Of a stretch of DNA of 64,000 nucleotides, positions 1-61,198 are shown piece after piece. This stretch comes from Malacoraja senta. Its lineage: Eukaryota. Below the pieces are notes generated by a model, which was not told the DNA's origin, ran no database searches, and was given only the letters and a program-made list of their open reading frames with translations. The stretch covers positions 5,518,001-5,582,000 of the forward strand of contig CM075988.1 in the NCBI GenBank assembly GCA_038087875.1. The letters are read 5' to 3'. Position 1 is the first letter of the stretch. Every line of letters starts with the position of its first letter. The translations under genes were made by a program, and so were the position numbers.

Positions 1-337
1 CAGACAGCACCCATAGTCAGCATTGAACCCAGGTCTCTGGCGCTATAAGGCAGTAGTTCTACCGCTACGCCACCGTACCACCCGGTTAACACCTAATTTA
101 GATGTTCTCCATGCACATCCTGACCAACAGCTGGCACGTGTCAACAGTCACCCAATCTTCAGTTGATAAGGCCACTAATGTCTTAACGTAGAAACAAGGA
201 ACTGCAGATGCTGGTTTACAAAATTACCTGAGAAAGGGTCAGTCTGAAGAAGGGTCCCGACTCAAAATGTCACCTATCCATGTTCTCCATAGATGCTGCC
301 TCACCCGCTGAGTTTCTCCAGCGTTTTAGTCTACCTT

Positions 338-700
338 CATCCTCGGTCTCCTCCATGGCCAGAGTGAGTCCCACCGCAAATTGGAGGAGCAGCACCTCAT
401 ATTTTGCTTGGGTAGTTTACACCCCAGCCGTGTGACTTCTCCAATTTCAGGAAGTTCTTGCTTTCTCCCTCCTTCCCCTCCCCTTCCCAGCTCTCCCACA
501 GCCTACGGTCTCCGCCTCTTCCTTTATTTTTCCCGCCCCCCTCCACATCAGTCTGAAAAATAGTCTCGACCCGAAACCCGAATGGTTTTTCCAGCATTTT
601 TGTCTACCTTCAATTTTTCCAGCATAGAAAATAGAAAATAGGTGCAGGAGGAGGCCATTCGGCCCTTCGAGCCAGCCAGCCATCTGCAGTCCTTTCTTAA
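338..700 (+). mobile_element. Penelope-like element 3' fragment (end of the GIY-YIG ORF plus pLTR)
   Basis: ILGLLHGQSESHRKLEEQHLIFCLGSLHPS resembles the PLE ORF C-terminus. It is followed by a pyrimidine-rich UTR and the hammerhead-bearing pLTR. Confidence 0.75.
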
Positions 701-2330: not shown

Positions 2331-3058
2331 AAGACTAAGTACAATTTATAGACCCCATTTAACCTACAAACCTGCATGTCTTTGGAATGTGGGAGAAAAC
2401 CAGAGCACCTGGAGGAAACTCACGCGGTTACAGGGAGAACGTGCAAACTCTGTACAGACAGCACCTGTAATCAGGATTGAACTCGGGTCTCTGACACTGA
2501 AGGCAGGCATTCGGCTGCTGCACCACTGTGCCCACCTTCACTGGTGGTGATGGAGGGAATAAGGTTTAGGATGGTGGGATGGTGCCGATAAAGCAAGCCA
2601 TCTTGTCCGGATGGTGTTGGTCTGCTTAAAGAGATGTTAGTGCTGCACGCTTCCATGTAAAGTGGCCAAAATCTAGCATAGGATATGTCTATTTTAGGAT
2701 TCCACCATAATCCTTAATACATGTCCTTCATACGGTAAATCTCTATGAATACAGCAAGATCGGGATGTCGGTGCAGCCAAACTAGCCGATGTACAAGACC
2801 ATTGCATATTATTCTATTAATGATCCAACACACATATAATTTGCGTTTGCTAAAAATGATACACGATATAATAATGCATTTACCAGTACAGGGAGGAGAG
2901 ACAACAAGACCCTGGTAAATGTAAAGAGAGCGAGAGAAACAGAACCAGATGAGTTTAAAGAGAGCGCTGGAATTGGGGCACCTTGTGAGAGGAGGGGAGC
3001 GCTGCAATCATTACCTGGGGCGCCAGATTCTAAACCGGTGAGGGTGCTCGGTGTGTAA

Positions 3059-3493
3059 AGGGCCTGTCCCACGAGCATGCGATTGCATGCGGCAAGCGCG
3101 ACCAAGCCGGAAGCTGGGGCCGCGCGGAGGTCGAGTGATCCCCGTACAGGGCCTGTCCCACGAGCATGCGGCTGCATGCGGCAAGCACCACCAAACCGGA
3201 AGCGGGGGCCGTGTGACGTCAAGACGGTGCGTACGCCCTCGATGCGGCTGCGTACGGCGTCGAGGCGGTGCGCACGGCCGTCGATGCGGCTGCGGGTCGG
3301 CAGGCCGTTGCCGCGTGGAATTTTTGAACAGTCTCAATTTTTCGGAGCCCCACGCGATGTCGGGACCAGCTCCGCACAACTCCATACGGCTCCGGCGATC
3401 GAAGTGGGACCGGCCCCGCAACCTCCGCGCGGCCCCCGCTTCCGGTTTGGTCGCGCTTGCCGCATGCGGTCGCCTGCTCGTGGGACAGGCCCT
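3059..3493. mobile_element. PIF/Harbinger-type MITE with ~73-bp TIRs
   Basis: AGGGCCTGTCCCACGAGC... at 3059 and its reverse complement ending at 3493, about 5 mismatches. Flanked by TAA and TTA. CpG-rich and noncoding. Confidence 0.85.
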
Positions 3494-5810
3494 TTAGGTG
3501 GTAATACGTACAGGTCTATCTAGCCTCCGAAGTTCCACACCGCATGCAATCTTAAAATATCAGATTGAACAAAAGATAGATTATATAGAAAACACAAATC
3601 TATAACACCTTATTGCAAACTAACAGATTTGAGCTAATTGATAATTAGTAAATACATTTTGTATTGATAGCACTGGAAGCTGATTCTCCGACCTCCTCTT
3701 GAAGCTACAGTATTTAAGGAGAACCATAAAAAGGAAAGATAATGAGAGAGAGAGAGAGAGAGCGTTACAGCTCTGGCAGCTAAACATGACACTTTGATTG
3801 ATTATTAAAGGTTACAGCATGGAAACAGGCCCTTCGGCCCACTGAGTCCATGCCGACCCATTCACACTAGTTCTACATTATCCCACTTTCACATCCATTC
3901 CCTACACTCTCAGGGCAAGTTACAGAGGACCAATTAACATAAAAACCAGTATCTTTGGGATGTGGGAGGAAACCAGAGCACCAGCAGGAAACCTATGCGG
4001 TCACAGGGAGATCGTGCAAACTCCACACAGACAGTAAGCAAAGATTAGGACCGTTCCTGGGTTTCGGGCATTGTGAGGCAACAGCTCTAACAGCTGCGCC
4101 ACTGTGCTGCCCGAAGTTAAAAGGAAAAAGATCAAAATGCTGTAAATCTGAAAATACTGGAAACATTCAGCGGGGCAGCATATTCGGCAGCATCTGCGGA
4201 GGGAGAAATAATTAATTTTTCAGGCTAATGAAAGTTGTGTAACATGCTTCTTTCTCCACAGATGCTGCTTGATATGCAGGCAATGGGCATAGACATCAGA
4301 CTAAACCTACACAGAGTTAATTTAATCTTGGATAAATAATTGGAATCATTTCTAACATATAATCCTTCATTCCACAAAGCACAAATTAACCTGGCGCAAC
4401 CAACATGGATTTGCTGAAGGGCGGTTATGTTGACTAACTTTACCAGATTCTTGGGGGTGGTAATGAGGAGCATGGATGAAGACAGTGCATTTGATGTCGT
4501 CTACATGGATTTCAGCAGATATTGGACAAGGTCCCGTCAAATCAGCTGTTGAGAAAACTGAAAACTGGTGGGAGTTAATGGAGCTGGAAATTTTAATCCA
4601 AAATAGGCTCAGTGCCAGGAAGCAAAAGCTAATGCCATGGGTATTGTTGAGACTGGAAGGCTGTTACCAGGTCCACACAGCTCAGTACTTAATCAACAGA
4701 GACATAAGGAACTGCAGATGTTGGAAGCTTGACCAATAAACAAATACTAGAGGAACTCAATGGGTTAGGCAGCATCTGTGGAGGGAAATGGACAAATGTA
4801 ATTTCAGGTCAGTACAACTCATCAGATGTAGAAACAAGGAACTGCAGATGCTGCTTTACACAAAAGGACACAAAGTGCTGGAGTAATTCAATGGGTCAGC
4901 AGCATCTCTTGAGAAGATGGACGGATGACGTTTCGGGTCTGAAGAAGGGTCCTGACCCAAAGCATCACCTATCCTTGTTCTCCAGAGATGCTGCCTGACC
5001 TGCTGAGTTACTCCAGAACTTTGTGACCCTTCCTCAGACTGATGGAGTGGGGCGGAGATAGACGAAAGAAAGTGAGGAGGAGAAGGGATGGGGCAAAAGG
5101 TGGCAAGTGATAGTTGGGTGGATTGGCAAATGATAAGGTGGGGGAAGAAAAGGATGGAGATGGTAGCCATGGCTGGAGATGATAAGTGGAGAAGTCAAAA
5201 GAGTGCAAATAGTGAGATCAAATAAGAAAGAAAGGTGGGAAAATAAATGTCGAGCCATGGTGGACAGGGACATCTGTCCATCTGCTGGAGATAATGGTGC
5301 AGCTTTGATGTTGCCCTGTTTGGAGTGGGGAATGCATCATCTATGGTTGCATAACTGGGAGAATGGGGTAAGGAGAAATGGGAGATCTGGGGAAGGAAGA
5401 GGTAGGTGATAAGCAGATGGAGGAAGTGGAAGGGACTGAGTGAGTGGGAGGCTTGGTCTGATGCCTTTTATTGTGCATATTAAATTAAAGGAACGGGGAA
5501 AAAAAGAAGCTTGCAAATGATTTGAAAATTCGCTCTGCGATTGAGAATGAGGAGGAAAGATTCAAACTCCAGAAAATGCAGGTGATTTGATCAACGGCAA
5601 GAAAAGTGACACATTTAATTTAATTCAGACAAGTGTGAGGTGCAACAAGATTCGGTAATAATCAATTGGCAGGAGGATGCTGAGGGAAATGGACAAGAGA
5701 GATCTTGGACAAATTCTTGATTAGAACGGTGTCATGGGTTATGGGGAGAAGGCAGGAAAATGGGATTAAGAGGCAGAGATCAGCCATGATTGAATGGCGG
5801 AGTAGACTAG

Positions 5811-6386
5811 ATGGGCCGAATGGCCTAATTCTACCCCTATCACTTATGACCTTATCACCTTATGTGATGGTAAGGATGTCAGGAGGAAATCAAATCACCT
5901 ATTTGGAACTTCTGGCTGTACACATTGTAAATACTTCACCTGTTCTTTAAGATCCACATGCCTGACTAAGTCTGAAGAAGGGTTTCGGCCCGAAACGTTG
6001 CCTATTTCCTTCGCTCCATAGATGCTGCTGCACCCGCTGAGTTTCTCCAGCATTTTTGTGTACCTCCAGTATTATTGAGAATGGGGATATTCCGAGAGCC
6101 TCCCTTTTAATCGCTGTTTAATTGTGCACCATTAATTTGTTTTAGTTTAAGTTTTGGTTTTAGAGATATAGCGGGGAAACAGGCCCTTCAGCCCACCAGG
6201 TCCGCACCGACCAGAGATCCCTGCACATTAGCACTATCCTACATACACTAGGGACAATTTACATTTATACCAATCCAATTAACCTACAAATCTGTACGTC
6301 TCTGGAGTATGGGAGGAAACCAAAACCTCAGAGGAAACCCACGCGGTCACGGGGAGAACGTACAAACTCTATACAGATAGCACCCG
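5811..6386 (+). repeat. Near-identical direct duplication of 36059-36634
   Basis: Offset 30248 bp with about 4 substitutions in ~575 bp. Includes non-repeat spacer sequence. Confidence 0.92.
5969..6003 (+). ncRNA. Minimal hammerhead-like motif (duplicated at 36217-36251)
   Basis: CTGAAGA-A-GGGT(TTCG)GCCC-GAAA-CG-TT, with palindromic AACGTT in helix III. Confidence 0.6.
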
Positions 6387-7609
6387 GAGCCCCGCGGCTG
6401 ACGAAGCCTGGGTCGGCAGAGCCCGCGGCTGGGGCTTGGGTCGGCACCTTGGAGGTGTCCGGAGAGGACTTGGCAGCGCTAGTGGAGAGGTCGGTGGGGC
6501 GGTCGATGAGGGCACCGATCGACGGATGAGGCCGGACCACGTGGAAGTGAGGGGACAGCTGCTGGGGGGAGGAACAAAGGAGGACCCGGCATGGGGGGGC
6601 CGCCGTGAGGAAGGGGGGAGGGAGACGATGGACAACCTTGGACCGGTGGGAGGAGGGGGAGGGGAGAAGACCAAAGGGGGTCCTGGCGCAGATACGTTAT
6701 GTGCAAGCAAAGAATTTCACTGTGACTTGTTACATGTGACAAATTCATTCATTCATTCATTACCTATTCACTTTTCACCAGAGATGCTGCCTGACCCGTT
6801 GAGTTACTCCAGCATTTTGTGTCTTTCTTTGGTATGAACCATCATCTGCAGTTCCTGTGTACAGATCTTGGAGTATACATCCTCTAGATGCTTAAAGGTC
6901 ACAGGACAAGTCAGTGAGTAGATTGCAAAAGTATTGAGGATCCTTTTATTAACTGATTCACAGAAAATAAGAGTCGGGAGGTGATACTGAAACTGTACAC
7001 AACACTAAGTAGACCACAATTTGAGTACTGAGTAAGAAAAGACACAGAGTGTTGAGTAACCCAAGGGTCAAGTAGCATCTCTGGAAAACATGGATAGGTG
7101 ATGTATTGGGTCAGGACCTTATCAGCTTCCTCCCCCTCCACCACAACTAGCCCGTAGAAAGTTTCCGACCCAAAAGGTCACCTGTCCATGTTCTCCAGAG
7201 ATGCTGCCTGACCCGTAGGTTTGTCTCCAAAAATAAACTTTATTCAGAATAAAAATATGTACAAAACAAATACTGTGCAAAGATCCTCAGACATTCTCAG
7301 CGTATATACATTCATAATATATGTTCATTAAGAATAAGGGGGAGGCCATTTGGGACTGAGATGAGGAAATACTTTTTCACCCAGAGAGTTGTGAATCTGT
7401 GGAATTCTCTGCCACAGAAGGCAGTGGAGGCAAATTCACTGGATGCTTTCAACAGAGAGTTAGAGCTCTTAGGGCTAATGGAATCAAGAGATATGGGGAG
7501 AAAGCGGAAACAGGGTACTGATTCTGGATGATCAGCCATGATCATATTGAATGGCAGTGCTGTCTTGAAGGGCAGAATGGCCTACTTCTGTACCTATTTT
7601 CTATGTTTC

Positions 7610-9960: not shown

Positions 9961-9986
9961 ACTAAACCAAACCAGCATCTCCAGTT

Positions 9987-10168
9987 AGACAAAAATGCTG
10001 GAGAAACTCAGCGGGTGAGGCAGCATCTATTGTGCGATGGAAATAGGCAACGTTTCGGCCCAAAACGTTGCCTATTTCCTTCTCTCCATAGATGCTGCCG
10101 CACCCGCTAGGTTTCTCCAGCATTTTTGTCTACCTTCGATTTTCCAGCATCTACAGTTCCTTCTTAAA
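9987..10168. mobile_element. Fold-back (inverted pLTR) Penelope-derived unit with 14-bp TSD
   Basis: Inverted arms span 9986-10132. TSD CAGCATCTCCAGTT at 9973-9986 and 10169-10182. Confidence 0.8.
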
Positions 10169-10776
10169 CAGCATCTCCAGTTCCTTGTTTCTCCTTGCAG
10201 TGTGTAGTTCTGATCATCACATTGTGGGAAGGATGAGTTTGAGCTGGAAAGATGCCACGGATATATGTGAGCCAGGACTGGGAAATTGTATCTCTAAGGA
10301 AAGATTGGATGAACTAAGTTTGTTTTCTTTGGAACTAAATGAGCACAAGGGATATTAAAGTGAAGTGTATAAAATTATCAATGGTGCAGCTAAATAGGAA
10401 GGACAGTAATGGGGATGGTGAGTGGTGCAGCAGTTATTGTGGGTGCCTGACAGCTCCAGGGACCCAGATTCAATTCTGAACTTGGAAGTTGACTATATGG
10501 AATTTTCATGTTCTACCTGCAATATTGTGGCTTTCCCTGGTTGCTCCTGTTTCCTCCCACTTCCCAAGTTTTTTTGAATGGTTGGTTATCTGGTCGCTGT
10601 AACTTGTCCCTAGTCAACAGGTCATAAGTGATAAGAGCAGAATTAGGCCATTCGGCCCATCAAGTCTACTCTGCCATTTAATCATGGCTGATCTATCTCT
10701 CCCTCCATACCCCATTCTTCTGCCGTCTGCCCGTAAACCCCGACATCCGTATTAATCAGTGTAGGGTGGCCTCCTA

Positions 10777-11000
10777 TGATAGACACTAAAAGCTGGAGTA
10801 ACTCAGTGGGACCAAGCAGCATCTCAGGGGAGAAGGAGTCGGTGACATTTTGGGTCGAGACCCTTCTTCATACTCAGTTTCATGACCCGAAACGTCACCC
10901 ATTCTTTCTCTCCAGAGATGCTGCCTGTCCCGCTGAGTTACTCCAGCTTTTTGTGTCTATCTTCGGTTTCAACCAGCATCTGCAGTTCCTCCCTACACAT
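10777..11000. repeat. Fold-back Penelope pLTR palindrome (similar units near 187-335, 4830-5020, 7040-7215, 42421-42575, 47670-47850)
   Basis: ~80-bp inverted arms GATAGACAC..GCTGGAGTAACTCAG and CTGAGTTACTCCAGC..GTGTCTATC. Confidence 0.75.
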
Positions 11001-14767: not shown

Positions 14768-14926
14768 GGACTTCCGGTGGCGCTATGGAGTAGGAGAGAC
14801 TCGCGCCGACTAGCTCCGGGAAAAAAACATTGAAAACGGGGGAAAAAGACGGGACCTACCTCTAGAAAACGGCACCGAGTGTTTGCAACAGGTCCGTGAC
14901 GTCATCAGGCGCGCGACACCGGCAGC

Positions 14927-15948
14927 ATGTCGATTCAACATACCCCCCCCAAGACGAGAAAAACCGGTAAGGGAAAAGAGGCAGGCCCAACTGAAGCCTC
15001 AGGCTTAGTTTTAACAGCATCCCAAGAAGATATCTCAAGGAAGAAAAAAACAGATGTGGAAGAATTAAGAACCTTCCTGACACAGGAAATCTCCAATATA
15101 ATGACAGAATTTAAAAATCTTAAACAGGAGCTGAAATCTTTAAAAGATGAAATTAAAGAACAAATTAAAGATGAGGTTACAGCTTCTGTGCATGAAGTTC
15201 TGGAAGACTGGAAATTAACCATGGAAGAAAATATGCATCAAAATACTGAAGAAGTATATGATAAACTGAATTCGATGGAATCCAGATTTGATGCTAAGTT
15301 GGAGCCGATCCTCCAGACTTTAAATCAACACCACGAGGCTGTAAAGGAATTGGAGGAAATTGCTGAGACAAGCATCGAAACAACAAAAAAACTTATTGCC
15401 GAGAACAAACGCCTATCGAAGTTATTACATCAAATAACTGAAAAATGTATTGACTTGGAGGGACGACAGAGACGTCAGAATTTAAGAATCGTAGGCGTCC
15501 AGGAAGGCAGAGAGGGGAATCGTGACCCTCGCGAATTTGCTGCAGATCTGCTGAAAAAAGTCTTGAATCTGGATCAAGCACCATTAATTGCCCGAGCGCA
15601 CAGAGTATCAAGACGTCGCCCAGGGGTGGGCGCCCAAGGCAACTGATAGTGAAGGTGCAATATGACCATGTTTTGGATGATATGATGAAGATAATTGTTC
15701 AAAGCAGAAACCTCGCATTTGAAGGAGACAAGATCAGTATATTTAGAGATTATCCTGTGGAAGTCGCCAAGAAGAGAGCGCTGTTTACAGAAACAAGAAG
15801 AATACTTAAGAATATAAACAATCTGAGATATGGACTGTTATATCCCGCAACATTAAGAGTGACCTATGAGAAGAAGGAACATTTCTTCGTCAAGCATACA
15901 GAGGCACTTGAATTTGCCCAGAGCATCGTGAATAAGACCGAAGATTGA
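14927..15948 (+). pseudogene. L1 ORF1p (coiled coil, RRM, CTD) with one frameshift near 15630
   Basis: Heptad-rich N-terminal half, then DLEGRQRRQNLRIVGVQEG, ARAHR, PRQLIVK after the frameshift, IFRDYP and LLYPATLRV. These are typical L1 ORF1 motifs. Confidence 0.9.
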
Positions 15949-16892
15949 ATAATATTCTCCACCCAACATTCACCTGAAGACAGTGGAAACTGTTATCCTG
16001 CAGAGAAGAGATGGAACTTTAAACTATAATTTTTAAGAACTGTCCCCTTTCTTCTTGCAGATTTTGTCCAAGATCTGCGGGAAGAATTGGGCAATTATCT
16101 CGCTACTGATACATAAAATTTATATTTTAGTACTAATTTCTAACAATTAATTCTAATCACGAATACTAATCAATACTAATTATTGTTAACTGGACCAACT
16201 TAGAATTGATTAAAAGTATGAAATATAAGTAAAGTGTGATCCAAATAATTAATTAATAAAATATAGGAATTTTTTTCCTTGCTATTTTGGATATTTGGAT
16301 ATTTTGGACTTTGATTACTCTTTAACAATGTTTTTTGATTACTCCTTAATAATGTTTTTTGATTACTCTTTAACAGTGTCTTCCCCTTTTTTTTTTAAAT
16401 TAAGAAAAAAAAAGAGGAAAAATATTTTTAGCTTGCTATATGATATTAACATTTTAATTGGAGACTAACAAATACTTCAATTATGGAATAAAACTATTGT
16501 TTCCCTCCCCCCCATAAATTGTTTTCATTGTAATTGAAACTTTTCTTTTAAGGAAAGTACGGTGCTAGTAATATTTTTTTTTTTAACAAAAGCTACGGAA
16601 GTCTTTAGATGTTTAGCCACACTAGGGTGGCTATCACTAACTGCACTAATCATAGTTGTAGTTTTCTTCTTTTTCTATTTTTTACACGTTACTAATACAA
16701 CATTTTATTACCTTTTCTATCTTATGTTATATTATATTTTGTATTTGGAATGGAATTATATGTTTTATTTAGGGAGATATGTCCGGATGAAAAACCGACA
16801 AGACTTAGAATTCATCTACCTGAGGTTCAAGTATAAGGTAGGGTTTAGTGCGCTGATCCAGCTGCTCCAACATAGACCACTTTAATCACAAG

Positions 16893-19800
16893 ATGCAAGA
16901 CGTTAATATGAAAATTGGGGGTGAAGGAATTAAATTTTGTAGCTGGAATGTTAAGGGAATTAATGAACCAATCAAGAGAGGTAAAGTATTAGCCTATTTA
17001 AAATCACTTAAAGCAGATGTAATATTTCTCCAGGAAACACATCTTAAAAAGGAAGCACAACATAGATCGAAAGCCAAATGGTTTGCTAAAACGTATCATT
17101 CTTCATTTTCACATAAATCTAGAGGGGTTGCAATATTAATTCGTAAAGGTATACCCTTTAAACATATATCAACGACAGAAGATATTGAAGGCAGATATAT
17201 TGTATTAGTAGGGGAGTTATACTCAAAAAAAGTGACTCTCCTTAATGTATATGGACCAAATTTTGATAGCCTCCTGTTCTTTAAGAGAATACTTAACATT
17301 ATCCCGGAATGTACACAACATAATTTAATTATCGGTGGAGACTTAAATTGTACACTGGATGCTTACTTGGATAGATCATCAAGTCAAAGAAAATTAAAAT
17401 CTCAGTCAAGTGAATTCCTAAATTCATATATTAATACTACCAACATTAAGGATGTTTGGAGAATTGAAAACCCATCTGGTCGAGAATACTCATTCTACTC
17501 ATCCGTGCATAAAACTTACTCAAGGATAGACTATTTCTTAGTAGACTCTAAACTTATCCCATTTACCTATAATTCGCAATATCATAATATTATAATATCG
17601 GACCATGCTCCACTAACATTTATGATTAAACTAAATGGAATGACCGAGACAAAGACACAATGGAGACTTAACCCCCAAATCTTGAAAGAAAAGCTATGTA
17701 ATGAATACCTCGTAAAACAGATTAATATGTTTTTCGAGGCTAATGACAGCCCTGGAATCTCCGCCTCCCTTCTTTGGGAAACATTTAAAGCATTTGTGCG
17801 AGGAGCATTAATCTCCTCCCAATCATTTATTAATAAAGAGAATAGGGCCAAACAACAGTCTTTGGAAATGGAAATAAGGCAATTAGACATAGAAAATGCA
17901 ATAGCACCATCTATGGTAAAACACAATAAAATTGCAGTACTGAAATATAAGTTAAACAAGATATACTCAGACCAAGTAATAAAACTATATCAACGTACAA
18001 AACAATTACATTTTGAATTTGAAGATAAACCACAAAAACTATTGGCACGTCAACTTCGTAAACAGGACGGGGAAAAAACAATTTACAAAATTAGATCAGA
18101 TAAGGGAGAAACATTAACACTACCTAAAGATATTAATGATAGATTTTTACAATATTATCAAAAATTGTATTCATCTAAAACAACAGAACAACCAGTAGGA
18201 ATGGAAACATTTCTACAGAAATGTAATCTTACAGGTCTAGATCAGAAAGAGAGAGAATCACTAGATGTAGAAATTACGGTAAAAGACATCGAGGAGTCAA
18301 TTAGATCTTTAAAAAATGGAAAGGCCGCAGGTCCTGATGGTCTAAGCTCTGAATTTTATTAAAAATGTTACGATCTGATTTCTCCACGTCTACAGAGACT
18401 TTACAAACAAGCTTATACTCAACAGAAACTTCCAGAAACTCTAAATGAATCTACAATCATACGTATACCAAAACCGGATAAGGACCCTGAAGACCCAGGT
18501 GCATATAGAGCAATAGCTCTCTTAAATACTGATCAGAAAATATTAACCAAAATCCTATCTCATAGATTGAGCTTAGTGATTAACAAATTAATACACCCGG
18601 ACCAAACAGGTTTTATTCCAAAACGTTACTCATTTTATAATTTGAGAAGACTATTCAATATTATATATACAAATAGAATTCCAAATGCAGATCTAGCAAT
18701 TATTTCGTTAGATGCTGAAAAGGCATTTGACCAGGTAGAATGGACATATTTATTTTCGGTAATGAAAAAATTTCAATTGGGAGAGAAGTACTGTACATGG
18801 GTTAAATTGTTATACTCTAATCCAACAGCTAGAATATTAACAAATCAAATGTTAGCAGCCAAATTTAATCTTTCTAGAGGTTGTAGACAAGGATGTTCAC
18901 TATCCCCACTATTATTTGCTCTTGCAATTGAACCATTAGCAGAAAGCGTTAGAAACCATCCAGGAATACATGGATACAACACTAGAGATACAAGGAATAA
19001 AATGTCCTTATATGCAGATGATGTATTAATATATATTACAAAGTTAGAAACTAGTATTCCAAATCTATTAAATCTAATAACACAATTTGGTCAGTTCTCA
19101 GGATATAGGATTAATTGGAATAAAAGTGAAATTATGCCAATAACAAAATTCAACTTAAATACAATACAACAATCCCCTTTTAAAATAGTTAAAGATAAAC
19201 TTAAATATTTAGGAATCTATGTAACTAAGACAAATACCTCTTTATTTAAACAAAATTTTCCATCCTTACTTAATAAATTACACAAACATATTCAGTACTG
19301 GAAAACACTTCCTATTTCAATGCTTGGTAGAATGAATGCTATAAAAATGATTTTCTTACTGCAACTACTATATTTATTTCAATTAATTCCGATATATATT
19401 CCAAAAAACGTTTTCAAAAAAGTCGACTCCATTGTTACAAGCTTTATTTGGGATTATAAGAATCATAGAATAAGTAAAAAACATTTATGTAAGTCAAAGA
19501 GCAACGGAGGTTTGGCCTTGCCAAATTTCTTATTTTATTTTTGGGCAGTCCATATTAAAAACATGAATTTCTGGCTGGAAGAAATGGACCAACAACCAGC
19601 TTGGTTAAGGATGGAAAAGGTTTACCATTTGAAATAGGTTCGATTATATTTGCTACCACAAAATTGCATAAAAAAACCTATAAGGAAAACCCTATAATAC
19701 ATAGTGGAATACGAATTTGGAAACAATTAAAAAAGGTTTTAAAACTGAATAATATACCACTATGTCTTCCCATTGTAAATAATCCTCTATTCAAGCCATC

Positions 19801-20673
19801 CATATTGGATAGAGGTTTTATACAATGGAAAAATCATGGAATTAAAAGGATTGGACATCTTTATAGGGAAGGCATCTTTCTGTCATTTCAAGAGTTACAA
19901 CAGAATCATGGACTACACTCAAATAACTTTTTCAGATATTTACAAATTAGAGATTATGTTAAATCCAATACACAAGTTTATAGGACTAGGGAACCAGAAA
20001 TTCTTGATGAATGTTTGAATAAGCATCCTAACACTGAAAAATTAATAGCATATTTATAACATTCTCCTAAATAATGAGGAACCACCGATGGAACTATATA
20101 GACATAAATGGGTAAATGAGTTAGGTTATCCTATTATGAAAGATATTTGGGACGAAAGTTTACAACATATACATCAATGTTCGTTAAATGCCAGACATGC
20201 TTTAATACAATTTAAAGTCTTACACAGATTACATTATTCCAAAATAAAACTAAATACAATTTTCCCACATATTTCTCCTATATGTGATAAATGCCTGCAC
20301 CTAGAGGCCAATTTAACACATACCTTTGCAAATTGTATAAAAATTAAAAATTACTGGACTGATATTTTTTCAAATAATCTCTGAAGTTGTTAATACCGAA
20401 TTGGCTCCAGACTCAAAATTAATAATACTTGGGATATCAGAACAAAGTTTAACACTCACAACAAGCCAAAGAAACTTCCTTGACTACAGTATAATAACAG
20501 GGAAAAAATTAATATTAAAATTCTGGAAAGGCCCTACAACCCCCACAATTAAAATGTGGATTGTGGAAATGTCGGAGACCCTACATCTAGAAAGAATTAG
20601 ACTTGTCTTAATGGACAAGCAAGAACTTTTTGTTAAAATATGGGCTCCATTCATTGCCTATTTGAAGGGATAG
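16893..20673 (+). pseudogene. L1 ORF2p (APE endonuclease, RT, CCHC) with a premature stop at 18360-18362 and about three frameshifts
   Basis: Endonuclease motifs SWNVKG, LQETH, GGDLN, SRIDY and SDH. RT motifs LDAEKAFD, QGCSLSP, YADD (19011-19022) and KYLGI. C-terminal CDKC..H..C. Confidence 0.93.
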
Positions 20674-21016: not shown

Positions 21017-22806
21017 AGAAACAGGTGAATTGATCATGGGGAACAAGGATATGGCGGACCAATTGAATAACTACTTTGGTTCCGTCTTCACATAGGAAGA
21101 CATAAATAATCTGCCGGAAATAGCAGGGGACCGCGGGTCAAAGGAGATGGAGGAACTGAGTGAAATCCAGGTTAGTCGGGAAATGGTGTTGGGTAAATTG
21201 AATAGATTAAAGGCCGATAAATCACCAGGGCCAGATAGGCTGCATCCCAGAATACTTAAGGAAGTAGCTCCAGAAATAGTGGATGCATTAGTGATAATTT
21301 TTCAAAACTCTTTAGATTCTGGAGTAGTTCCTGAGGATTGGAGGGTAGTAAACGTAACCCCACTTTTTAAGAAGGGAGGGAGAGAGAAAACCGGGAATTA
21401 CAGACCAGTTAGTCTAACATCGGTAGTGGGGAAACTGCTAGAGTCAGTTATTAAAGATGGGATAGCAGCACATTTGGAAATTGGTGAAATCATTGGACAA
21501 AGTCAGCATGGATTTACGAAAGGTAAATCATGTCTGACGAATCTTATTGAATTTTTCGAGGATGTAACTAGTAGAGTGGATAGGGGAGAACCAGTGGATG
21601 TGTTGTATCTGGACTTTCAGAAGGCTTTCGACAAGGTCCCACATAAGAGATTAGTATACAAACTTAAAGCACACGGTATTGGGGGTTCAGTATTGATGTG
21701 GATAGAGAACTGGCTGGCAAACAGGAAGCAAAGAGTAGGAGTAAACGGGTCCTTTTCACAATGGCAGGCAGTGACTAGTGGGGTACCGCAAGGCTCAGTG
21801 CTGGGACCCCAGCTATTTACAATTTATATTAATGAACTGGATGAGTGAATTGAAGGCAACATCTCCAAGTTTGCGGATGACACTAAGCTGGGGGGCAGTG
21901 TTAGCTGTGAGGAGGATGCTAGGAGACTGCAAGGTGACTTGGATAGGCTGGGTGAGTGGGCAAATGTTTGGCAGATGCAGTATAATGTGGATAAATGTGA
22001 GGTTATCCACTTTGGTGGCAAAAACAGGAAAGCAGACTATTATCCAAATGGTGGCCGATTAGGAAAAGGGGAAATGCAGCGAGACCTGGGTGTCATGGTA
22101 CACCAGTCATTGAAAGTAGGCATGCAGGTGCAGCAGGCAGTGAAGAAAGCGAATGGTATGTTAGCTTTCATAGCAAAAGGATTTGAGTATAGGAGCAGGG
22201 AGGTTCTACTGCAGTTGTACAGGGTCTTGGTGAGACCACACCTGGAGTATTGCATACAGTTTTGGTCTCCAAATCTGAGGAAGGACATTATAGCCATAGA
22301 GGGAGTACAGAGAAGGTTCACCAGACTGATTCCTGGGATGTCAGAACTTTCATATGAAGAAAGACTGGATAGACTTGGCTTATACTCGCTAGAATTTAGG
22401 AGATTGAGAGGATATCTTATAGAAACGTACAAAATTCTTATGGGGTTGGACAGGCTAGATGCAGGAAGATTGTTCCCGATGTTGGGGAAGTCCAGGACAA
22501 GGGGTCACAGCTTAAGGATAAGGGGGAAATCCTTTAAGACCGAGATGAGAAAAAACTTTTTCACACATAGTGGTGAATCTGTGGAACTCTCTGCCACAGA
22601 TGGTAGTTGAGGCCAGTTCATTGGCTATATTTAAGAGGTAGTTAGATGTGGCCCTTGTGGCTAAAGGGATCAGGGGGTATGGAGAGAAGGCAGGTACGGG
22701 ATACTGAGTTGGATGATCAGCCATGATCATATTGAATGGCGGTGCAGGCTCGAAGGGCCGAATGGCCTACTCCTGCACCTATTTTCTATGTATCTATGTA
22801 TCTATG
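21017..22806 (+). mobile_element. CR1-clade LINE, 3' part (RT and 3' UTR with a CTATG-type tail)
   Basis: [40 protein letters not shown] and LVRPHLEYC, with in-frame stops. Tail TTTTCTATGTATCTATG. Confidence 0.92.
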
Positions 22807-24870
22807 ACTCTATGACTGTATGACTCTATAATGGATGGCACAGTGGCACAGTGGTAGAGTTGCTGCCTTACAGAGCCAGAGACCCAGGTTCCATCCTGAT
22901 TGCCGCGCTTGTCCATACATAGTTTGTACGTTCTCCCCGTGACCTACGTGGGTTTCCCCCAGGAGCTAGGTTCCCCCCCCACACCACAAAGACGTACAGG
23001 TTTGCCGGTTAATTGGCTCGGTATAAGTGTAAATGGTCCCTAGTGTGTGTAGGATCATGTTAATGTGCGGGGATCGCTGGTCGGCGCGGACTCGGTGGGC
23101 CAACGGGCCTGCTTCTGCGCTGTTTAAAGAGACCAATTAAACTACAAACCCGCACGTCTTTTGGATGTTGGGAGGTAACAGAAGCACACAGCAGTCACAG
23201 GGAGAATGATAAAGTCTCCTCAGACAGCACCTGAGGTAGGATTGAACCCGGGTCTCTGGCTCTGTGAGGCAGCAGCTCAACCACTGTGCCACTGTGGAGT
23301 TCAAACTTTGACAAAATTGCTCCCGGTTTGTTCCTGTATATTTGTTGTTCGGTGAAGATCAGGTGTAGTGTGCCTCAAGATAGGCAGAATTCCTTCTGCA
23401 AATACACTGTGTGTCCTGGGAACTACTGGCCCATGAGTGCTCGAAATGTAGTGGATGTCACTGAGACCCTGGTGTCCCTTCATCAGGTCTATCTAGAAAC
23501 CCAGCATATATGGACCCACTGCCCATCCGGCTATCCCAGTAACAACCCGTGGAAAAGTTCACACTGGCTCATCAGTTGCCCTCATTACCTTGAATTTTCA
23601 TATCCACCTTTAATAGAAATAATTATTAGTCCTCCACCCACCTCATGGGTGATAATGACGAAAATGATGATAATTATGATGATACTTTATTGCCACATGT
23701 ACCTTAGCTGCAGTGGAATTCTTTGTTTTGCATACAATGCAACAGGTAGGCAAAGAGTCGCCCCATTTAATTTAGTTTAGATACAGCGCAGAAACAGGCC
23801 CTTCGGCCCACCGAGTCCATGCCAACCGTCGATCCCCGCACACTAACACTGTCCTAAGCACACTAGGGACAATTTTACACTTATACCAAGCCAATTAACC
23901 TATAAACCTGTACGTGTTTGGAGTGTGGGAGGAAACCGAAGATCTCGGAGAAAACCCACGCAGGTCACAGGGAGAACGTACAAACTCCGTACAGGCAGCA
24001 CCCGTATTCAGGATCGAGCCCAGTTCTAGGGGGCTGAAAGCCAGTAGCTCTACCGCTATCCCACTATAGCTTACAAAGTATTTGGTATCTTTGGTGATCC
24101 CTCTTTTCATCTTCGATTCTCCCACGGTTTCCTCGGCGCCCCCGCCACACTGGGTCTCTCTTCGTTCTCGGCGGCCCTCCCCATGCCAGGTCTCTCTTTG
24201 TTCTCTCGGTGGGGTGTCCTCGGACGACCTCTGGCACTCACTCACTGGGCAGAGAATTCCAAAGATTCACCTCTCCCTGAGAGAATAAATCTCCACACAC
24301 TTTAGTTTTCATCGAACGACCCTTTACTTTATCGTTACGTCCCCTTGTGCGTGACCTACCCATCAGTAAAACATCTCAACATCAACCCTCTCTAAGGATC
24401 TCATGTGGATCTATGGGGCCACCACCATTCATTCATTCATCGTAGTTCTAAGGAATGCAGATTCAAGCTGACTAACCTCTCTTCATAGAACAACCTCTCG
24501 CCCCAGACATTGGCGAGTGGGACTAGTTCGCTTTAAGTCAACTTGGTCAACATGGTCGAGTTGGGCCGAATGGCCTCTTCTACACTGTATAACACTGTAA
24601 CTCTGTGACATTAATGAATATGGGATTATAACAGGAGTGAATCTATGCTCACAATCACAGCAGGGTATTTCTTATAACTGTATTGAAGAAAACTAATACA
24701 GGTTAAAAAAGATATACTTTGTCCAACAATCTGTCTCTGTATGCTTCGTTGTCACCTTCTCCTTGGTAACAATGATCTATTTTACATTTTCTTGAACCTC
24801 ATCTCCTTTGATATCTCGTTTTCACACCTTACCCTTCCTTATCTCTGTGTCTCCCTCTCCCTTGACTCTC

Positions 24871-24904
24871 AGTCTGAAGAAGGGTATCGACTCGAAACGT
24901 CACC
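24871..24904 (+). ncRNA. Minimal hammerhead-like motif
   Basis: CTGAAGA-A-GGGT(ATCG)ACTC-GAAA-CG-TC, with a G-U pair in stem II. Confidence 0.55.
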
Positions 24905-24908
24905 ATTC

Positions 24909-25338
24909 GCGGGCGGCGCTGAACTTCAAACACCGTGGAGCCTGGGATCTCACGACGAGGTCGCCAGAGTCGGAGCATCGACCAGCGCGGCTCGTGGACT
25001 TCGGGAGCCGCGGTATACTGGGAGGAGGCGGACGCTCCAGACACTCCGGGCCGCTGAGAGTGTTCACCCGACATCAGAATTCCATCATCCGGCGAGAGGG
25101 CCTGAAGCATCGGGCTGCCGTAGCGGCGACTGCAGAGGCCTCAATAGGCCTCGACTATGGGTGAACTGGGGATGGGACTGGACTTTGCTGCCTTCCCGCA
25201 CAGTGGGAACCATTGTGGGGGGATGTTTTTATGTTGTTAAGTTCTTGGATGTAATCTTTATTTGTGTGCTGCATGGCAAGTCAAATTTCACTGCACCAAT
25301 TGGTGTATGTGACAATAAATGTTTATCTATCTATCTAT
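24909..25338 (+). mobile_element. GC-rich non-autonomous retroposon with a (TATC)n tail, inserted in a Penelope pLTR
   Basis: TSD CATTC at 24904-24908 and 25339-25343. AATAAA precedes the tail. Confidence 0.65.
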
Positions 25339-25754
25339 CATTCCTTCTATCCAGAGTTGCTGCCTGTCCCGCTGAGTTACTCCAGCATTTTGTGCCTACC
25401 ATGAAACCCCCTCGCCATGCACTGTCCTGCCCCTTTCTCTTTTCCACCTTTCTATTCCGCCCCACCACTATGAGTCTGAAGAAGGATTCCACCTGAAAAG
25501 TCACCTATACATTTTCCCCAGAGATGCTGCATGACCCGCATCTGCAGTTCTTGGTTACCACAATACAGGTCCTCTCCAGATCATGATAGGTCCTGAGAAC
25601 TGTCCACGACCCGAACAGTTTGCAAGTCGGAAATCCAGCTGCCTGGCAATATATTTAAATAAAACAGAGGCCAACATAGGCCTATAACTCAACCATTCAG
25701 GTTTATCAGCAATATGCACTGATATTGGCGTTAACCCTATTCCCATACTGCAGA

Positions 25755-25920
25755 ATATAGACACAAAATACTGGAGTAACTCAGCGGGACAGGCAGCATC
25801 TCTGGAGAGAAGGAATGGGTGACTTTTCGGGTCGAGACCCTTCTTCAGTGTCTGAAGAATACTTCAGCTTTTTGTGTCTATCTTCGGTTTACACCAGCAT
25901 CTGCAGTTCCTTCCTACACA
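25755..25920. mobile_element. Fold-back Penelope-derived unit with 14-bp TSD (one mismatch)
   Basis: TCCCATACTGCAGA at 25741-25754 and TCCCATACAGCAGA at 25921-25934. Confidence 0.75.
25817..25850 (-). ncRNA. Minimal hammerhead-like motif on the minus strand
   Basis: Reverse complement reads CTGAAGA-A-GGGT(CTCG)ACCC-GAAA-AG-TC-ACCC. Confidence 0.55.
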
Positions 25921-27089
25921 TCCCATACAGCAGAGGATGTGTGCAGTCCTACAACAGGCAATCCATCCCATTGTTCCGTTAAATGCTCGGTCGTATGTAC
26001 GAGCTGTCTATGTTAGGTGTTCCTAACCTAGAGAGGATCTGTAATGTAGTTCGGTTTAGAGATACAGCACAGAAACTGGCCCTTCGGCCCACCGTCCACG
26101 ATGACCAGCGATCCCAGCACCCTAATACTATCCTACACACACGAGGGACAATTTACAATTATACCAAGCCAATTAACCTGCAAACCTGTACGTCTTTGGA
26201 GTGTAGGAGAAAACTGGAGTTCCCGGAGAAAACCCATGTAGGTCACGGGGAGAACGTATAAACGTCGTACAGACAAGCACCCGTAGTCAGAATCGAACCT
26301 GGGTCTCTAGCGCTGTGAGGCAGCAACTCTACCGCCACGCCACTGTTCCTCCCTTGTATTGAAAGAAAGGCCATGATCGACTGTGGCCAAGCAGCCACAT
26401 TGTGGTAAAAATCCAATCTATTTGTTTGATGTTGTCCAATGAAATCTAGCTTGTTTGGTCCTGATGGCACAGTATACCTGTTAGACTACAAATGCTAATG
26501 TGTCAGGTTTGTTTGCATCTGATTACAGCATGAAAAATCTGCAGACCTTCACAAGGATAATTCATGAAATAAAACAAAAAACACATTCTAGAGAAAATTC
26601 ATTACTGTATAGCTCTAAACTTCGTGAATCCCAGGATCAATATTTACTACCAACATTAATATCGGTTTAGCAATATCAGTGCCAACTCTCTGAATAATAG
26701 CAATCTGTTCCATACAATCAATCACTTTTTCTTTTGCTTTATCCAAGGTTTTAATGTCTAACTTTAGCTTCACTGTATTGATTAGTCACAAAGGTGTCCT
26801 GGCCTCTTCCTTCCACACAGTTTCCCAATTGCAGAGAAATCGAGATCAATACCTGGTAAAAAAATTACTCATGCTCATTTGTCAGCTGACTTGCTAGAAT
26901 GACTAAAATGATTATACTTCAAAAGCTGGAAGTACTTGGTGATATCCTGAAGGATAGGAAGGTGTTCTATCAAAGCGTGAGAACAGGGACAGTGTGATTA
27001 ATTGGGTTGTTCCTTCAAAGGCTTCGTACAAGCAACTTTTACACCCTATGCCTACTTTCTACTCTGAAAGACTTTATCAATGAAGAACA

Positions 27090-27330: not shown

Positions 27331-27357
27331 TTGTCTAGCCGTCGTTAGACAGGAATT

Positions 27358-30300
27358 ATGCAGGAAGACTACGTTCCCGCAGAATCGGCTGGCACGAGGC
27401 AGAGCTCACCGGGTTTCGAACTACCGATGTTCTGGCTGGATCAACCGCAAGTTTGGCTCGACCACATAGAGGCACAGTTTCATCTGCATGGCATTGCAGC
27501 AGACGAGACAATGTATTTCCATGTGGTGGGGGCTCTGCCACAGGACTGTGCCACGAGGCTGCTGCCTTACATAAGAGACCCGCTGGCGACAGCCAAATAC
27601 GAGGGATTGAGGGCAGTCCTGTTACACACCTTCGGGCTCAGCCGCCGAGACAGGGCGGTGAAGATCCTTCACATGGATAGAATCAGCGATCCCCAGCACC
27701 TCGCGGAAAGAGCCGATGAACTATGGAACACCAGACGACAAGACGTTTGCTCCTTCACCCGCCCCGCTGCCACGGCCAGGGTGCAGCCTAGGAGAAATCG
27801 AGAAGGAGGACCGAACTCGCCCAGCCTGAAGATGTCGGGTTCCCTGTCCGTTTCAGGGAAATGCCTCGGCCGATCGCCCACAAAGGCTAACGCGATCGGC
27901 CTGAACGAACGCCTCTACGTCCGTGATCGCCACTCTGGCTACCGTTTCCTGGTCGACTCCGGTGCCATAACCAGCTTCCTGCCCCCGACCGCTTGAGATA
28001 CCCGCATCGGTAAGGTAGGACCTGTCCTCTCGGCCGTTAACGGGAGCGACATTCGCACTTACGGGACGCGGATCCTGGACATAAATTTTGACTCCCACCC
28101 ATATAGGTGGAAGTTTGCCGTTGCTGACGTCGCCCAGCCGATATTGGGGGTCGACTTCTTGCGCGCATTCTCCCTGTTAGTAGATGTGCAAGGCGGGCGG
28201 ATGGTCCCGTGGTTGGACTTGTGCCCTACCAAGCCGCGTAATCCGTTAACGCCCAACAGCAGCCCGACGAGGTCGCTGAGATCCAGCAACCTTTCGCAGC
28301 CCTTCTCACCAAATTTCCAGGGTTGTTCCGGTCCCGGTTCAACAGGGCCGCGTCTCATCATGGCGTGGTCCACCACATCCCCACCGAGGGCCCACCAGTA
28401 CACGCCCGCGTGCGGCGCCTTCCGCCTGATAAACAGCGCATCGCACGAGACGAGTTCCAGCTTATGGAAGACATGGGAATTGTCTGGCAGTCGGATAGCC
28501 CTTGGGCTTCCCCTCTGCATATGGTGCCCAAAGCGTCTGGGGGTTGGAGACCTTGCGGTGATTACAGGCGTTTAAACGCGGTAACCACAGCACATCGATA
28601 CCCAGTCCCGAACATCCAAGATTTCTCAGCTCATTTGGAGGGCGCTACCTTCTTTTCGAAGGTCGACCTGGTCCGGGGGTATAATCAAATCCCGGTCCAC
28701 CCCGACGACGTCCCTAAGACGACCACCATCACCCCTTTCGGCCTTTTCGAAAGGCTAAGAATGCCTTTTGGCCTGAAGAACGGCGCTCAAGCGTTGCAAA
28801 GGTTAATGGATCAGTTCGGGCGGGGTTTGCCGTTCATATTCATCTTCCTCGATGATACTCTGGTGGCCAGCAGCTCGCAGGCTGAACACGTTAGGCTGCG
28901 CAAGCAGGGGTTGGTGATCAACCCCGCGAAGTGCCAGTTTGGGTTGCGCCTCATCTCCTTTTTAGGTCACAGGGTAACCAACCAAGGCGCCCAACCGCTG
29001 CCCGAGAAGGTCGATGCAACCCGTCGTTTCCCGAGGCCACTATCCGTCAAGGGCCTGCAGAAATTCATCGGTATGGTTCATTTCTACCACCGATTCGTCC
29101 CGTCAGCGGCCGCCATCATGCGACCGCTGTTTCAATGTCTGGCATGCAAGCCCAAGGATCTGGTTTGGTCCGATGCAGCTACATGGCTTTCGAGGGGGCT
29201 AAGACCGCACTGGCCAACACCACCATGCTGGTACACCCGAAGGCATCTGCCCCCATGGCCCTCACTGAGGACGCTTCGGACATCGCGGCTGGCGTTTTTC
29301 AGCAGTCAGCTACGGGCCCTGGAGATTAAGTACAGCACTCTCGATCGGGAACTCCTCGCACTTTACTTAGCGATCGGGCATTTCCGCTACTTCCTCGAGG
29401 ACCACACGTTCACTGCATTCACGGACCACAAGCCGCTCACGTTCGCATTGAATAAAGTAACCGACCCCTGGTCCGCCAGGCAACAGCGGCACCTCGCCTA
29501 CATATCCGAATTCATGTCTGACATTCAGCATGTGGCGGGGAAGCTGAACGTTGTGGCCGACGCACTCTCCCGTCCGCCGGTCCCTGAGGTTTCCCTTTTA
29601 AACCTAGGTGTGGATTATACGGAGCTGGCAGCGGCTCAAAGGGCCGACGCCGGCATGGAGGATTACCGCAATGCTGAATCGGGACTCAAGCTGACTGAAG
29701 TGCCTTGCGGCGCCGCAGGCGTGCGAGTCATTTGCGATGTCTCAACGGGTAAATCCCGCCCGATCGTCCCGATTGCCTGGAGACGTCGGATTTTCGACAC
29801 CATCCACAGCCTAGCTCACCCATCCATCCACGCCACCTCTGCCCTGGTTGCTTCCAAGTTCGTCTGGCACAGGTTACGAAAGGAGGTCACAGCATGGGCC
29901 CGCGCTTGTATCCCGTCAGACTTCCAAGGTGCAGAGGCATGTGCGCCCGCCCGTGCAGGATTTCGCTGTTCCAGACGGCAGGTTCCTGCACATCCATGTT
30001 GACCTGGTGGGTCCCTTGCCGTGTTTGTGTGGGGACACTCACTTACTAACAATCGTGGATAGGTTCACCAGGTGGGCGAAGGCAATACCGTTAACCGATA
30101 CCTCCGCTGAGGCTTGTGCCCGCGCTATTGTCTCCAATTGGATCGCTCGTTTTGGGGTCCCTTCAGATATCACTACGATCGTGGGGCCCAGTTCACGTCC
30201 TCCCTGTGGTGTGGTATGGCGCAGCTGTACGGCGCAAAGTTGCACCAGACCACCCCGTATCATCCAGAGTCGAACGGTTTAGTCGAGCGGTTTCACAGAC

Positions 30301-41700: not shown

Positions 41701-42790
41701 CAAATATTGGGAGGAGAATGGTTTTGTATTTCCCAACATTTTCAAAGCCCAGAAGTTACCTTCGATATTTTATCTCTCGGGAATAAATCGTTAATGCAAG
41801 GCAAGCAGTTTAGTTTAGTGTAGTGTAGAGAAACAGCGCGGAAATAGGCCCTCCGGCCCACCTAGTACGTGCCGACCACCGATCCCCGCGTCAACTACGT
41901 CAACCGGCGACAGGTACTGGCGACTGAATTGTCTTCAGTAGTCTTCAGTTTGTCGACGTAGGTTGACTTTGTTTGTCAACCTACGTCCTATCCTACAAAC
42001 ACTTGGGACAATTTACAATCTTACCAAGCCAATTAACCTACAAACCTGTACGCCTTAGGAGTGTGGGAGGAAACCGGAGCTGCCAGGGAAAACCCTCGCA
42101 GGTCACATGGAGACAACTGTACAAACAGCACCCGTGGTCAGGATTGAACCCGGGTCTCTGGCGCTCTAAGGAAGCAACACTACCACTGCCACATGTGCAG
42201 CAGGCTGCAAATTGGACCGTTCAGTGAACTTCTGTAACATTGTTGGCACCAAAACATTGCAACACCTGTGTATTGTGTACTGCCCAGGTGAGGTCTGCTG
42301 TCTGATTTTACCAGGTGAGTTAACTGCCAATTCAAGCAGGCTGTTTCTTCCTGGATGGTGTTGATTAGTGCTAGTCTGTACCATTGCCTCAACAATTGAA
42401 TCAAAGGGCTCACTAACAACTTGTGTAGGAAGGAACTGGAGATGCTGGTTTATACTGAAGATAGACACAAAATACTGGAGTAACTCAGTGAGTCAGGCAG
42501 CATCTTTGGAGAAAAGTACTCCAGAGATTTAGCGATGTGACGCTGCCCGACCCATTGAGTTACTCCAGCATTTTAGTTTAGTTTAGTTTAGTTTAGAGAT
42601 GCAGCGCAGAAACAGGCCCTTCGGCCCCCGAGTCCGCATCAACCAACATTAACACTATCCTACACACACCAGGGTCAATTAATCTACATACCTGTACGTT
42701 TTTGGAGTGTGGGAGGAAACCGAAGATCTCGGAGAAAACCCACATGGTCACGGGGAGAACGTGGTCATGGGGAGTCCGGCACTGCAAGCG

Positions 42791-44875: not shown

Positions 44876-44882
44876 AAGACCT

Positions 44883-45097
44883 GTACGAAAGAACTGCAGA
44901 TGCTGGTTTAAATCGAAGGTAGATGCAAAATGCTGGAGTAACTCAGCAGGACAGGCAGCATCTCTGGAGAGATGGTGATGTTTCTGGTCGAGACACTTCT
45001 TCGGACTGGCCTCGACCCGAAAAGTCATCCATTCCTTCTCTCCAGAGATGCTGCTTGTCCTGCTGAGTTACTCCAGCATTTTGTGTCTACCTAAGGG
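44883..45097. mobile_element. Fold-back Penelope-derived unit with 11-bp TSD
   Basis: Inverted pLTR arms. TSD AATAAAGACCT at 44872-44882 and 45098-45108. Confidence 0.8.
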
Positions 45098-47470: not shown

Positions 47471-47504
47471 AGTCTGAAGAAGGGTCCAGACCCGAAATGT
47501 CACC
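47471..47504 (+). ncRNA. Minimal hammerhead-like motif (intact core)
   Basis: CTGAAGA-A-GGGT(CCAG)ACCC-GAAA-TG-TC. Confidence 0.6.
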
Positions 47505-56343: not shown

Positions 56344-56901
<558 letters not shown>

Positions 56902-61094: not shown

Positions 61095-61198
61095 ATTCCT
61101 TCTCCCCAGAGATGCCGCCTGTCCCGCTGAGTTACTACAGCATTTTGTGTCTACCAAAATATATATATATAGATATTATATATTGTATAATATCAATC

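Follow-up and report, generated by a model that had tools for sequence, protein, structure and literature searches.

The question raised by this locus is how short units made of two inverted pLTR pieces came to be bracketed by their own direct repeats, and what set the points at which their arms stop. In the 64-kb stretch of DNA analysed here (the window), a reading made from the letters alone (the sequence-only reading) singled out three such units and offered two explanations, i.e., insertion products whose template end is set by the ribozyme region, or a self-propagating, non-autonomous family of hairpin RNAs. A check against the sequence showed that the three units and their flanking direct repeats are real, with all six repeat coordinates correct, and the units are best described, as the first explanation had it, as single ORF-less insertion products of a Penelope-like element (PLE) with real TSDs. 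We consider it highly probable that each of the units arose by a single target-primed insertion, in which a Neptune-type PLE copied only 100–135 nt around the pLTR hammerhead, and that the inversion was made during insertion, not from a hairpin RNA.

The window is vertebrate DNA rich in repeats; broken retrotransposon ORFs of the L1-like, CR1-like and Gypsy-like kinds lie at 14900–20059, 21096–22610 and 27349–30282. On the minus strand, 56344–56901 is the final coding exon of a gene with an ETS domain (Pfam Ets), which we take to be FLI1/ERG-like, and the three units lie 11–46 kb beyond the stop codon of this gene. A GC-rich repeat at 2809–3523, with internal inverted arms of 72–76 nt and a 21-nt tandem, is unrelated to the pLTR. 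At 61837–62292, 63164–63468 and 40834–41342, SINE-like 3′ ends form long inverted pairs with short tandem tails at the meeting point, a possible second source of duplex RNA. Using a profile built from pLTR copies in the window and applied to the same window, 43 fragments of one short repeat group were mapped in the 64 kb.

The identity of this repeat group is indicated by the 3′ end of a longer copy at 342–625 (plus strand), in which what remains of a GIY-YIG endonuclease C-terminus (342 to about 430) lies directly upstream of a pyrimidine-rich pLTR with a hammerhead at 552. A second GIY-YIG remnant is present at 63705–63812. The best protein match of the remnant upstream of the pLTR copy is a skate protein, so that the source is likely to be a ray or skate. 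A search with the last 99 residues of this protein recovers shark proteins that have RVT_1 and GIY-YIG matches and a Cys-rich linker. The GIY-YIG Pfam match is above the curated cut-off for P0123 and below it for four other proteins; the 43-aa endonuclease remnant itself gave no Pfam match. P0124 appears to read on through the pyrimidine-rich stretch into the hammerhead motif, and the skate protein P0002 resembles a chimeric gene model in which the RT fragment of another retroelement is fused to a Penelope GIY-YIG domain. According to the accessible text of PMC8557442, a Cys-rich, Zn-finger-like motif between RT and endonuclease is a mark of Neptune and Nematis. Such a linker motif is present in the shark proteins nearest the remnant's skate match; the corresponding region is absent from the window, in which no PLE RT ORF or full-length element was found. 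The repeat probably represents the short ends of a Neptune-type PLE, a clade assignment taken from the linker motif of relatives rather than from a tree.

Positions within the repeat are given in a model numbering, in which +1 is the T of TCTGAAGA, the predicted hammerhead cut falls after +29, and the tail ends at +132. The motif at +2 to +29 comprises CTGAnGA, a bulged A, a G–C closing pair, GAAA and a palindromic ACGT, which as a sequence pattern suggest a minimal type I PLE hammerhead. The same features are given for minimal PLE hammerheads in the available portion of PMC4209133, as is a helix I of the length predicted here for the genomic form, i.e., only 2 bp. The predicted core is kept in 7 of the 14 segments tested. 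Rfam gave no match over the window at the gathering threshold, and a search of 59800–61250 with E up to 10 returned nine weak unrelated matches and no hammerhead. A pattern scan found no match in viral contigs; its one match in metagenome contigs showed no further similarity and was set aside as chance.

Unit 1 is bracketed by plus-strand repeats at 9973–9986 and 10169–10182, which are exact over 14 nt (17 nt with one mismatch) and enclose 182 nt. An inverted, tail-less arm at 9987–10058 (minus strand, model about +93 to +20) meets a direct arm with tail at 10052–10170 (plus strand, +12 to +132), and the two arms have 7 nt in common at a natural palindrome. The left TSD lies within an older pLTR tail remnant (about 9968–9986, resuming at 10169–10194), which was the target, since both repeat copies have C where most copies have G, and the tail of unit 1 itself has A. 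The hairpin apex had been placed at 10051–10068 and equated with stem II itself; this proved incorrect, as the loop is at 10056–10062, centred on +19, in a natural palindrome formed by the stem II loop pairing with the GAAAC core. Unit 1 is entirely without the 5′ half of the hammerhead core.

Unit 2 is bracketed by plus-strand repeats at 25741–25754 and 25921–25934 (14 nt, one mismatch in the right copy), which enclose 166 nt. Its inverted, tail-less arm at 25755–25848 (minus strand, about +95 to +2) has the hammerhead core on the minus strand, and its direct side at 25849–25921 (plus strand) is a 10-nt snap-back piece (−1 to +9) joined to +72 to +133 with the tail. In unit 3 the plus-strand repeats at 44872–44882, at the tail end, and 45098–45108 are exact over 11 nt, with five extra bases inside the right copy, and enclose 215 nt. 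The direct arm with tail (44882–45008, minus strand, −3 to +130) has a mutated hammerhead core, and the inverted, tail-less arm (45008–45092, plus strand, +11 to +95) is followed by five filler bases. The units had been expected to form dsRNA hairpins of about 70–80 bp when transcribed, which in structural terms is borne out for two of the three: units 1 and 3 are predicted to fold as long hairpins (z = −16.2), whereas for unit 2 (z = −1.9) a 70–80 bp hairpin would be prevented by the absence of +10 to +71 from its direct side, which passes straight from +9 to +72. Some units would form duplexes of 70–85 bp if read through.

The flanking repeats were evaluated in two ways, counting scores of at least 11. 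In a boundary-anchored search, 3 of 9 fold-backs reached this score, compared with 5 of 2,500 random intervals (binomial p about 7e-7). A wider search over 11 fold-backs, 11 single-arm copies and 1,000 random intervals gave three, three and four, respectively, with clear TSDs absent at 8 of the 11 fold-backs, which speaks against the insertion reading. Among the three single-arm cases, one is an AT microsatellite and was discounted. The other two are a copy at 36895–37015 (plus strand, +50 to +132), which has an exact 13-nt TSD (36895/37003) and 13 filler bases, and a copy at 50567–50723 (minus strand, −2 to the tail end), which has an exact 11-nt TSD (50567/50713). Repeats far above chance, and of equal length on single-arm copies, suggest that the TSDs are real and are not special to fold-backs.

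Besides the three units, the sequence-only reading had counted about six more palindromes without a clear TSD, and eight further fold-backs were mapped, one of them tentative. The fold-back at 187–338 (minus strand, no TSD) has an inverted arm at −4 to +97 and a direct arm consisting only of tail (about +98 on), so that its arms do not overlap, and that at 51041–51137 (minus strand) likewise has non-overlapping arms, inverted −2 to +10 and direct +43 to +132. At 4826–5027 (minus strand, no TSD), an inverted arm of −1 to +88 joins a direct arm of +17 to +133 through 3-nt microhomology; its tail directly abuts +1 of an older, different copy at 4706–4826, and in three related genomes joints of this type rank with those that have the best support. 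At 10779–11000 (plus strand, no clear TSD), the inverted arm extends to about −2 and the direct arm spans +17 to +134. The junction at 42422–42575 (minus strand) lies downstream of the hammerhead (+38/+42), and the tentative case at 47455–47542 (minus strand) has an inverted arm of −2 to +70 and a direct-arm remnant from +43. The two remaining fold-backs, at 7036–7229 in a CR1-like flank and at 47670–47850 (both plus strand), have flank and junction in common.

Several observations were made beside these copies. The CR1-like fragment and fold-back common to 6935–7229 and 47550–47850 are 76% identical, and another pLTR copy lies just upstream of each; an old composite repeat and a 5′ transduction are both conceivable origins of the pair. 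A 679-bp stretch that includes a single-arm pLTR copy and a SINE-like repeat occurs at 5713–6386 and at 35957–36634, 30 kb apart with 97% identity, and is either a recent duplication or an assembly echo. One copy at 24745–24908 (plus strand) keeps about 130 nt of natural pLTR upstream of the hammerhead; it is interrupted by another repeat at 24908–25330, which may be a transcribed element, as RNA reads of a relative over 25105–25239 are nearly one-stranded (85 vs. 1,320).

The usual layout of a fold-back, in element sense, is an inverted arm whose outer end lies at +88 to +97, a junction, and a direct arm running to +130 to +134. The outer ends thus fall at two points about 37 nt apart (about +95 and +132), with a 30–40 bp tail on one arm only, and the junctions differ from one another, with 1–7 nt of microhomology or a short filler. 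For the 5′ or inner ends, 35 were counted in the one 64-kb window, with several positions adjusted by eye; the count excludes the copy at 47670, a duplicate at 36210, the part of unit 2 that begins at +72 and, at 47455, the direct remnant, which is uncertain. Of these ends, 13 lie at −4 to +5, 7 at +8 to +20 and 2 at +26 to +34, where an even spread over −30 to +60 would give 2.9, 4.2 and 2.9, respectively. The first group is 13 of the 29 ends within −30 to +60 (scan-corrected p 6e-5), and most of its members, being directly adjoined by a TSD or by the other arm, are true ends. Position −2, the A of TCAGT, is the most frequent end. The claim that the inversion point falls in or next to the hammerhead therefore stands in 9 of 10 independent fold-backs, which have an arm ending at −4 to +20. 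The ribozyme region is involved, as that reading held, but the ribozyme cut itself is not the end: no arm in these 10 fold-backs ends at +26 to +34, and only 2 of all 35 ends do so, with 2.1–2.9 expected. The fixed point instead coincides with the hammerhead's 5′ edge, and the predicted scissile bond lies about 30 nt further downstream.

A mechanism that could yield this layout is suggested by a PLE studied in vitro. In the text available from PMC11167929, the PLE protein cuts and extends both target strands, two internal RNA start sites bound the tail, 5′-shortened templates give shorter products, and ribozyme cleavage is not needed. In the proposed mechanism, the PLE protein would nick and extend both target strands, reverse transcription would start at the two internal sites bounding the tail (about +95 and +132), and both cDNAs would run to the fixed template end and be joined head to head through 1–7 nt of microhomology or filler; a single priming event alone would leave a single-arm copy. 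Two cDNAs, one per nick, would then explain all fold-backs.

The most serious alternative, which we judge possible but unlikely, is self-copying of a cDNA, or of an antisense transcript, after it has folded back on a local palindrome. Self-priming has been proposed in PMC3846280, with the antisense-transcript version put forward for rotifer Penelopes, as far as the excerpted text goes, and palindromes are indeed present at the junctions of unit 1 (7 nt shared), unit 2 (an 8-bp hairpin) and the fold-back at 42422. Units 1, 3 and 42422 fit a simple snap-back equally well, and unit 2 includes a 10-nt snap-back. However, the tail-bearing arm stops short of the 5′ extent of the inverted arm in four fold-backs (187, 4826, 10779 and 51041), two of which (187 and 51041) have arms that do not overlap. 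Dual priming is favoured here because a cDNA cannot add sequence absent from itself, unless later deletions occurred, and such deletions could mimic non-overlapping arms. Nor does self-priming predict that most inverted arms have their outer end at the tail-less point that is also used by single-arm copies.

Returning to dual priming, the fixed 5′ end calls for an account of its own. TCAGT resembles the Pol II initiator consensus. An internal promoter in the pLTR of D. virilis Penelope is described in the accessible part of PMC2377424. The fixed end may be the 5′ end of the element's own transcript, a tentative assignment that we consider plausible rather than probable, or it may reflect a stop at a folded or protein-bound ribozyme. 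A broader scheme is put forward just as tentatively: the transcript would start at the hammerhead 5′ edge, reverse transcription would start at the nearby tail sites, and run-off products of 100–135 nt, comparable to LTR strong-stop DNA, would be integrated in huge numbers, with single arms left by one priming event, the inverted pLTR by priming at both nicks, and head-to-tail tandems by a switch to a second template. In the literature searched, no report of a fixed 5′ end or of a dual-priming reading for PLEs was found, though older reviews may contain one.

It is improbable, in our judgement, that the template 5′ end was instead produced through self-cleavage of the hammerhead, or through splicing at the AG that immediately precedes it. 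One single-arm copy does start at +30, the base after the predicted cut, and another at +34 (these copies, at 6762 and 25340, both follow tetranucleotide microsatellites). However, 2 of 29–30 ends near the predicted cut is the chance level, and the motif upstream of the cut is complete in most copies. For splicing, an AG is present at −2/−1 after a pyrimidine-rich stretch, helix I has just 2 bp in the genomic form, and in D. virilis Penelope an intron ends at helix I according to the portion of PMC4209133 at hand. A spliced template would replace the upstream letters, whereas copies ending at the edge mostly keep the genomic AG, CAG or TCAG and have no common exon-like leader.

The ends were also compared with reads and contigs from other samples, i.e., three related DNA runs (X1, X5 and X14, as contigs) and one poly(A) RNA run, four of 23 listed runs in all, over positions 24700–26040. 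X1 contains the left junction of unit 2 with no differences and may be the window's own source, hence it is not independent. This 1.3-kb stretch, which also contains another repeat, is matched by 285,445–308,403 contigs per related DNA run. In the three related genomes, the loose letters beyond +2 are the complement of TCAGT, after which agreement falls (0.35) into AT-rich sequence; the pile of loose ends at +2 coincides with the end of the reference arm and is therefore not clean support. In the RNA run, of which about 6% of the reads were used, depth over the pLTR is 8,368 at +25, 403 at −11 and 55 at −109, against a reference without the upstream sequence of other subfamilies, and this fall is consistent with few copies extending upstream. 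No pile-up of starts or ends was seen over the pLTR, nor a transcript starting at −2, in these poly(A) reads, a selection which would miss a discrete transcript. The pLTR reads are strand-balanced (6,067 vs. 5,870), and 97% of them continue into other sequence; they are taken as read-through out of many host loci, and nothing points to a discrete transcript. With regard to A-to-I editing, places with A>G and T>C changes are about twice as many in the RNA run as in the DNA run of the same organism, and several transversions are likewise about twofold.

That two independent single-arm insertions came to lie head to head, aided by a preference of the element for its own copies, is less probable still. 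Some observations point this way: unit 1 sits in an older tail, the fold-back at 4826 abuts an older copy, the arms of 10779 differ in divergence (11 vs. 2 private changes), and joints from the tail to an inverted arm occur in 36–51 contigs per related genome. On the other hand, a single TSD brackets both arms in units 1–3, and the arms of a fold-back mostly have common subfamily marks. In 6 of 7 units, the two arms rank 1–5 of 20–29 to one another, with an own-arm identity of only 80–89%, and the partner arm at 4826 ranks 14 of 24. The rank at 4826 and the private changes at 10779 suggest that one or two fold-backs could be double insertions, yet such insertions would leave the regular asymmetry between tail and tail-less arm unexplained.

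The contig comparison, in which joints were counted in part, contigs break at repeats, depth is not a copy number and the reference arm ends at +2, also bears on whether fold-backs multiply as whole units. Beyond natural continuity, the tail-to-inverted joints mentioned above share the lead with head-to-tail joints from the tail or tail-less end to the hammerhead edge (27–64 contigs per row and run; 54–64 per genome for those from the tail end), and both are in line with known partial tandems and self-targeting. The best 15 of 3,232 joints from the three related genomes include no head-to-head joint. The apex of unit 2 (25849) has depths of 42,464, 51,651 and 23,272 in the three DNA runs compared with 38.4, 32.0 and 13.1 million at model +25, i.e., only about 0.1–0.2%, and 70–81% of this apex depth carries another base. 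The flanks of unit 2 are covered in X1, X5 and X14, with no joint skipping the unit, as an empty site would show, among the joints listed.

Least probable of all is a self-propagating, non-autonomous hairpin or retrozyme-like RNA family moving as a whole unit: the 11 fold-backs represent 10 differing junctions of separate origin from several subfamilies, the direct arms of units 1–3 contain no intact hammerhead, one within a long hairpin would in any case be paired away, no tandem array of fold-back units is present in the window, and no fold-back joint dominates among those counted in the three related genomes. A few observations speak for such a family. The head-to-tail joints are one, and the fold-backs at 7036 and 47670, with the same junction and, at 76% identity, the same CR1-like flank over about 130 nt, are another, although they indicate one fold-back copied once together with its flank. 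A few head-to-head joints have a depth of 534–1,061 compared with 22–40 for single-copy contigs of X1, suggesting that some fold-backs were multiplied. The fold-backs at 47455 and 51041 have the same 2-nt microhomology and belong to different subfamilies.

Target-primed insertion with dual priming remains the preferred reading, and TSD-bounded inverted pLTRs as such were already known. What is of interest here is the residue, i.e., the fixed 5′ end and the dual-priming reading. The origin of the inverted pLTRs and tails of PLEs is named as an open question in the passages available from PMC8557442 and PMC11167929. If the scheme is correct, the missing steps of PLE replication are recorded in the genome by these short copies, and ray and shark genomes hold enough copies for models of second-strand synthesis and inversion to be tested by counting. 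Since the family is very abundant, a single assembly could supply counts of ends and junctions that discriminate snap-back from dual priming and show where the template 5′ end lies. In addition, annotation software could mistake these units for miniature inverted-repeat elements.

In twin priming of L1, second priming occurs at the opposite nick, and a 5′ piece is left in inverted orientation within a single TSD. This non-overlapping layout is seen in the fold-backs at 187 and 51041, whereas fold-backs in the window usually have an inverted arm that repeats the direct arm and begins at a fixed site of the element. The non-LTR (animal) retrozymes, as far as 10.64898/2026.07.22.740005 and PMC4209133 could be accessed, are likewise pLTR-derived and non-coding and have a minimal type I hammerhead motif. 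However, consecutive units of a retrozyme each have a complete hammerhead and are arranged as head-to-tail tandems, whereas the units in the window are head-to-head and single, with broken or missing cores. One junction from tail to edge joins two different copies, at 4826. Under the definition in the accessible text of 10.64898/2026.07.22.740005, an assignment as non-LTR retrozymes was rejected, as the units do not form tandems, their hammerhead cores are incomplete and the ends are not clustered at the cut.

The features of PAc (Poseidon of Anolis) in vitro that appear in the excerpted PMC11167929 are closer, i.e., two internal starts bounding the tail downstream of the hammerhead, priming of both strands, AT-rich or self targets, and no requirement for ribozyme cleavage. 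PAc belongs to a different clade, and inverted products and second-strand steps are not addressed in that excerpt. Like Neptune PLEs of cartilaginous fishes, the repeat has an endonuclease remnant matching shark and skate RT and GIY-YIG proteins, and several of its copies in the window lie in microsatellites.

The closest likeness is to the complex insertions of EN+ PLEs. The accessible text of PMC3846280 describes an inverted pLTR shorter by 37 bp, a 31-bp tail, TSDs of 8–10 bp and palindromes at the junction, and that of PMC8557442 gives an inverted 5′-truncated copy with a 30–40 bp tail as typical. The fold-backs in the window agree in the head-to-head inverted arm that is about 37 nt shorter, the tail on the other arm, the similar TSD size, the palindromes or microhomology at the junctions and the strong 5′ truncation. 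They differ in that both arms are shorter than 135 nt, no ORF is present and the TSDs are 11–14 rather than 8–10 nt long, and a cluster of ends at the hammerhead 5′ edge is not reported in those portions of the two papers. On the features tested, the units are 5′-truncated EN+ PLE insertions with an inverted pLTR.
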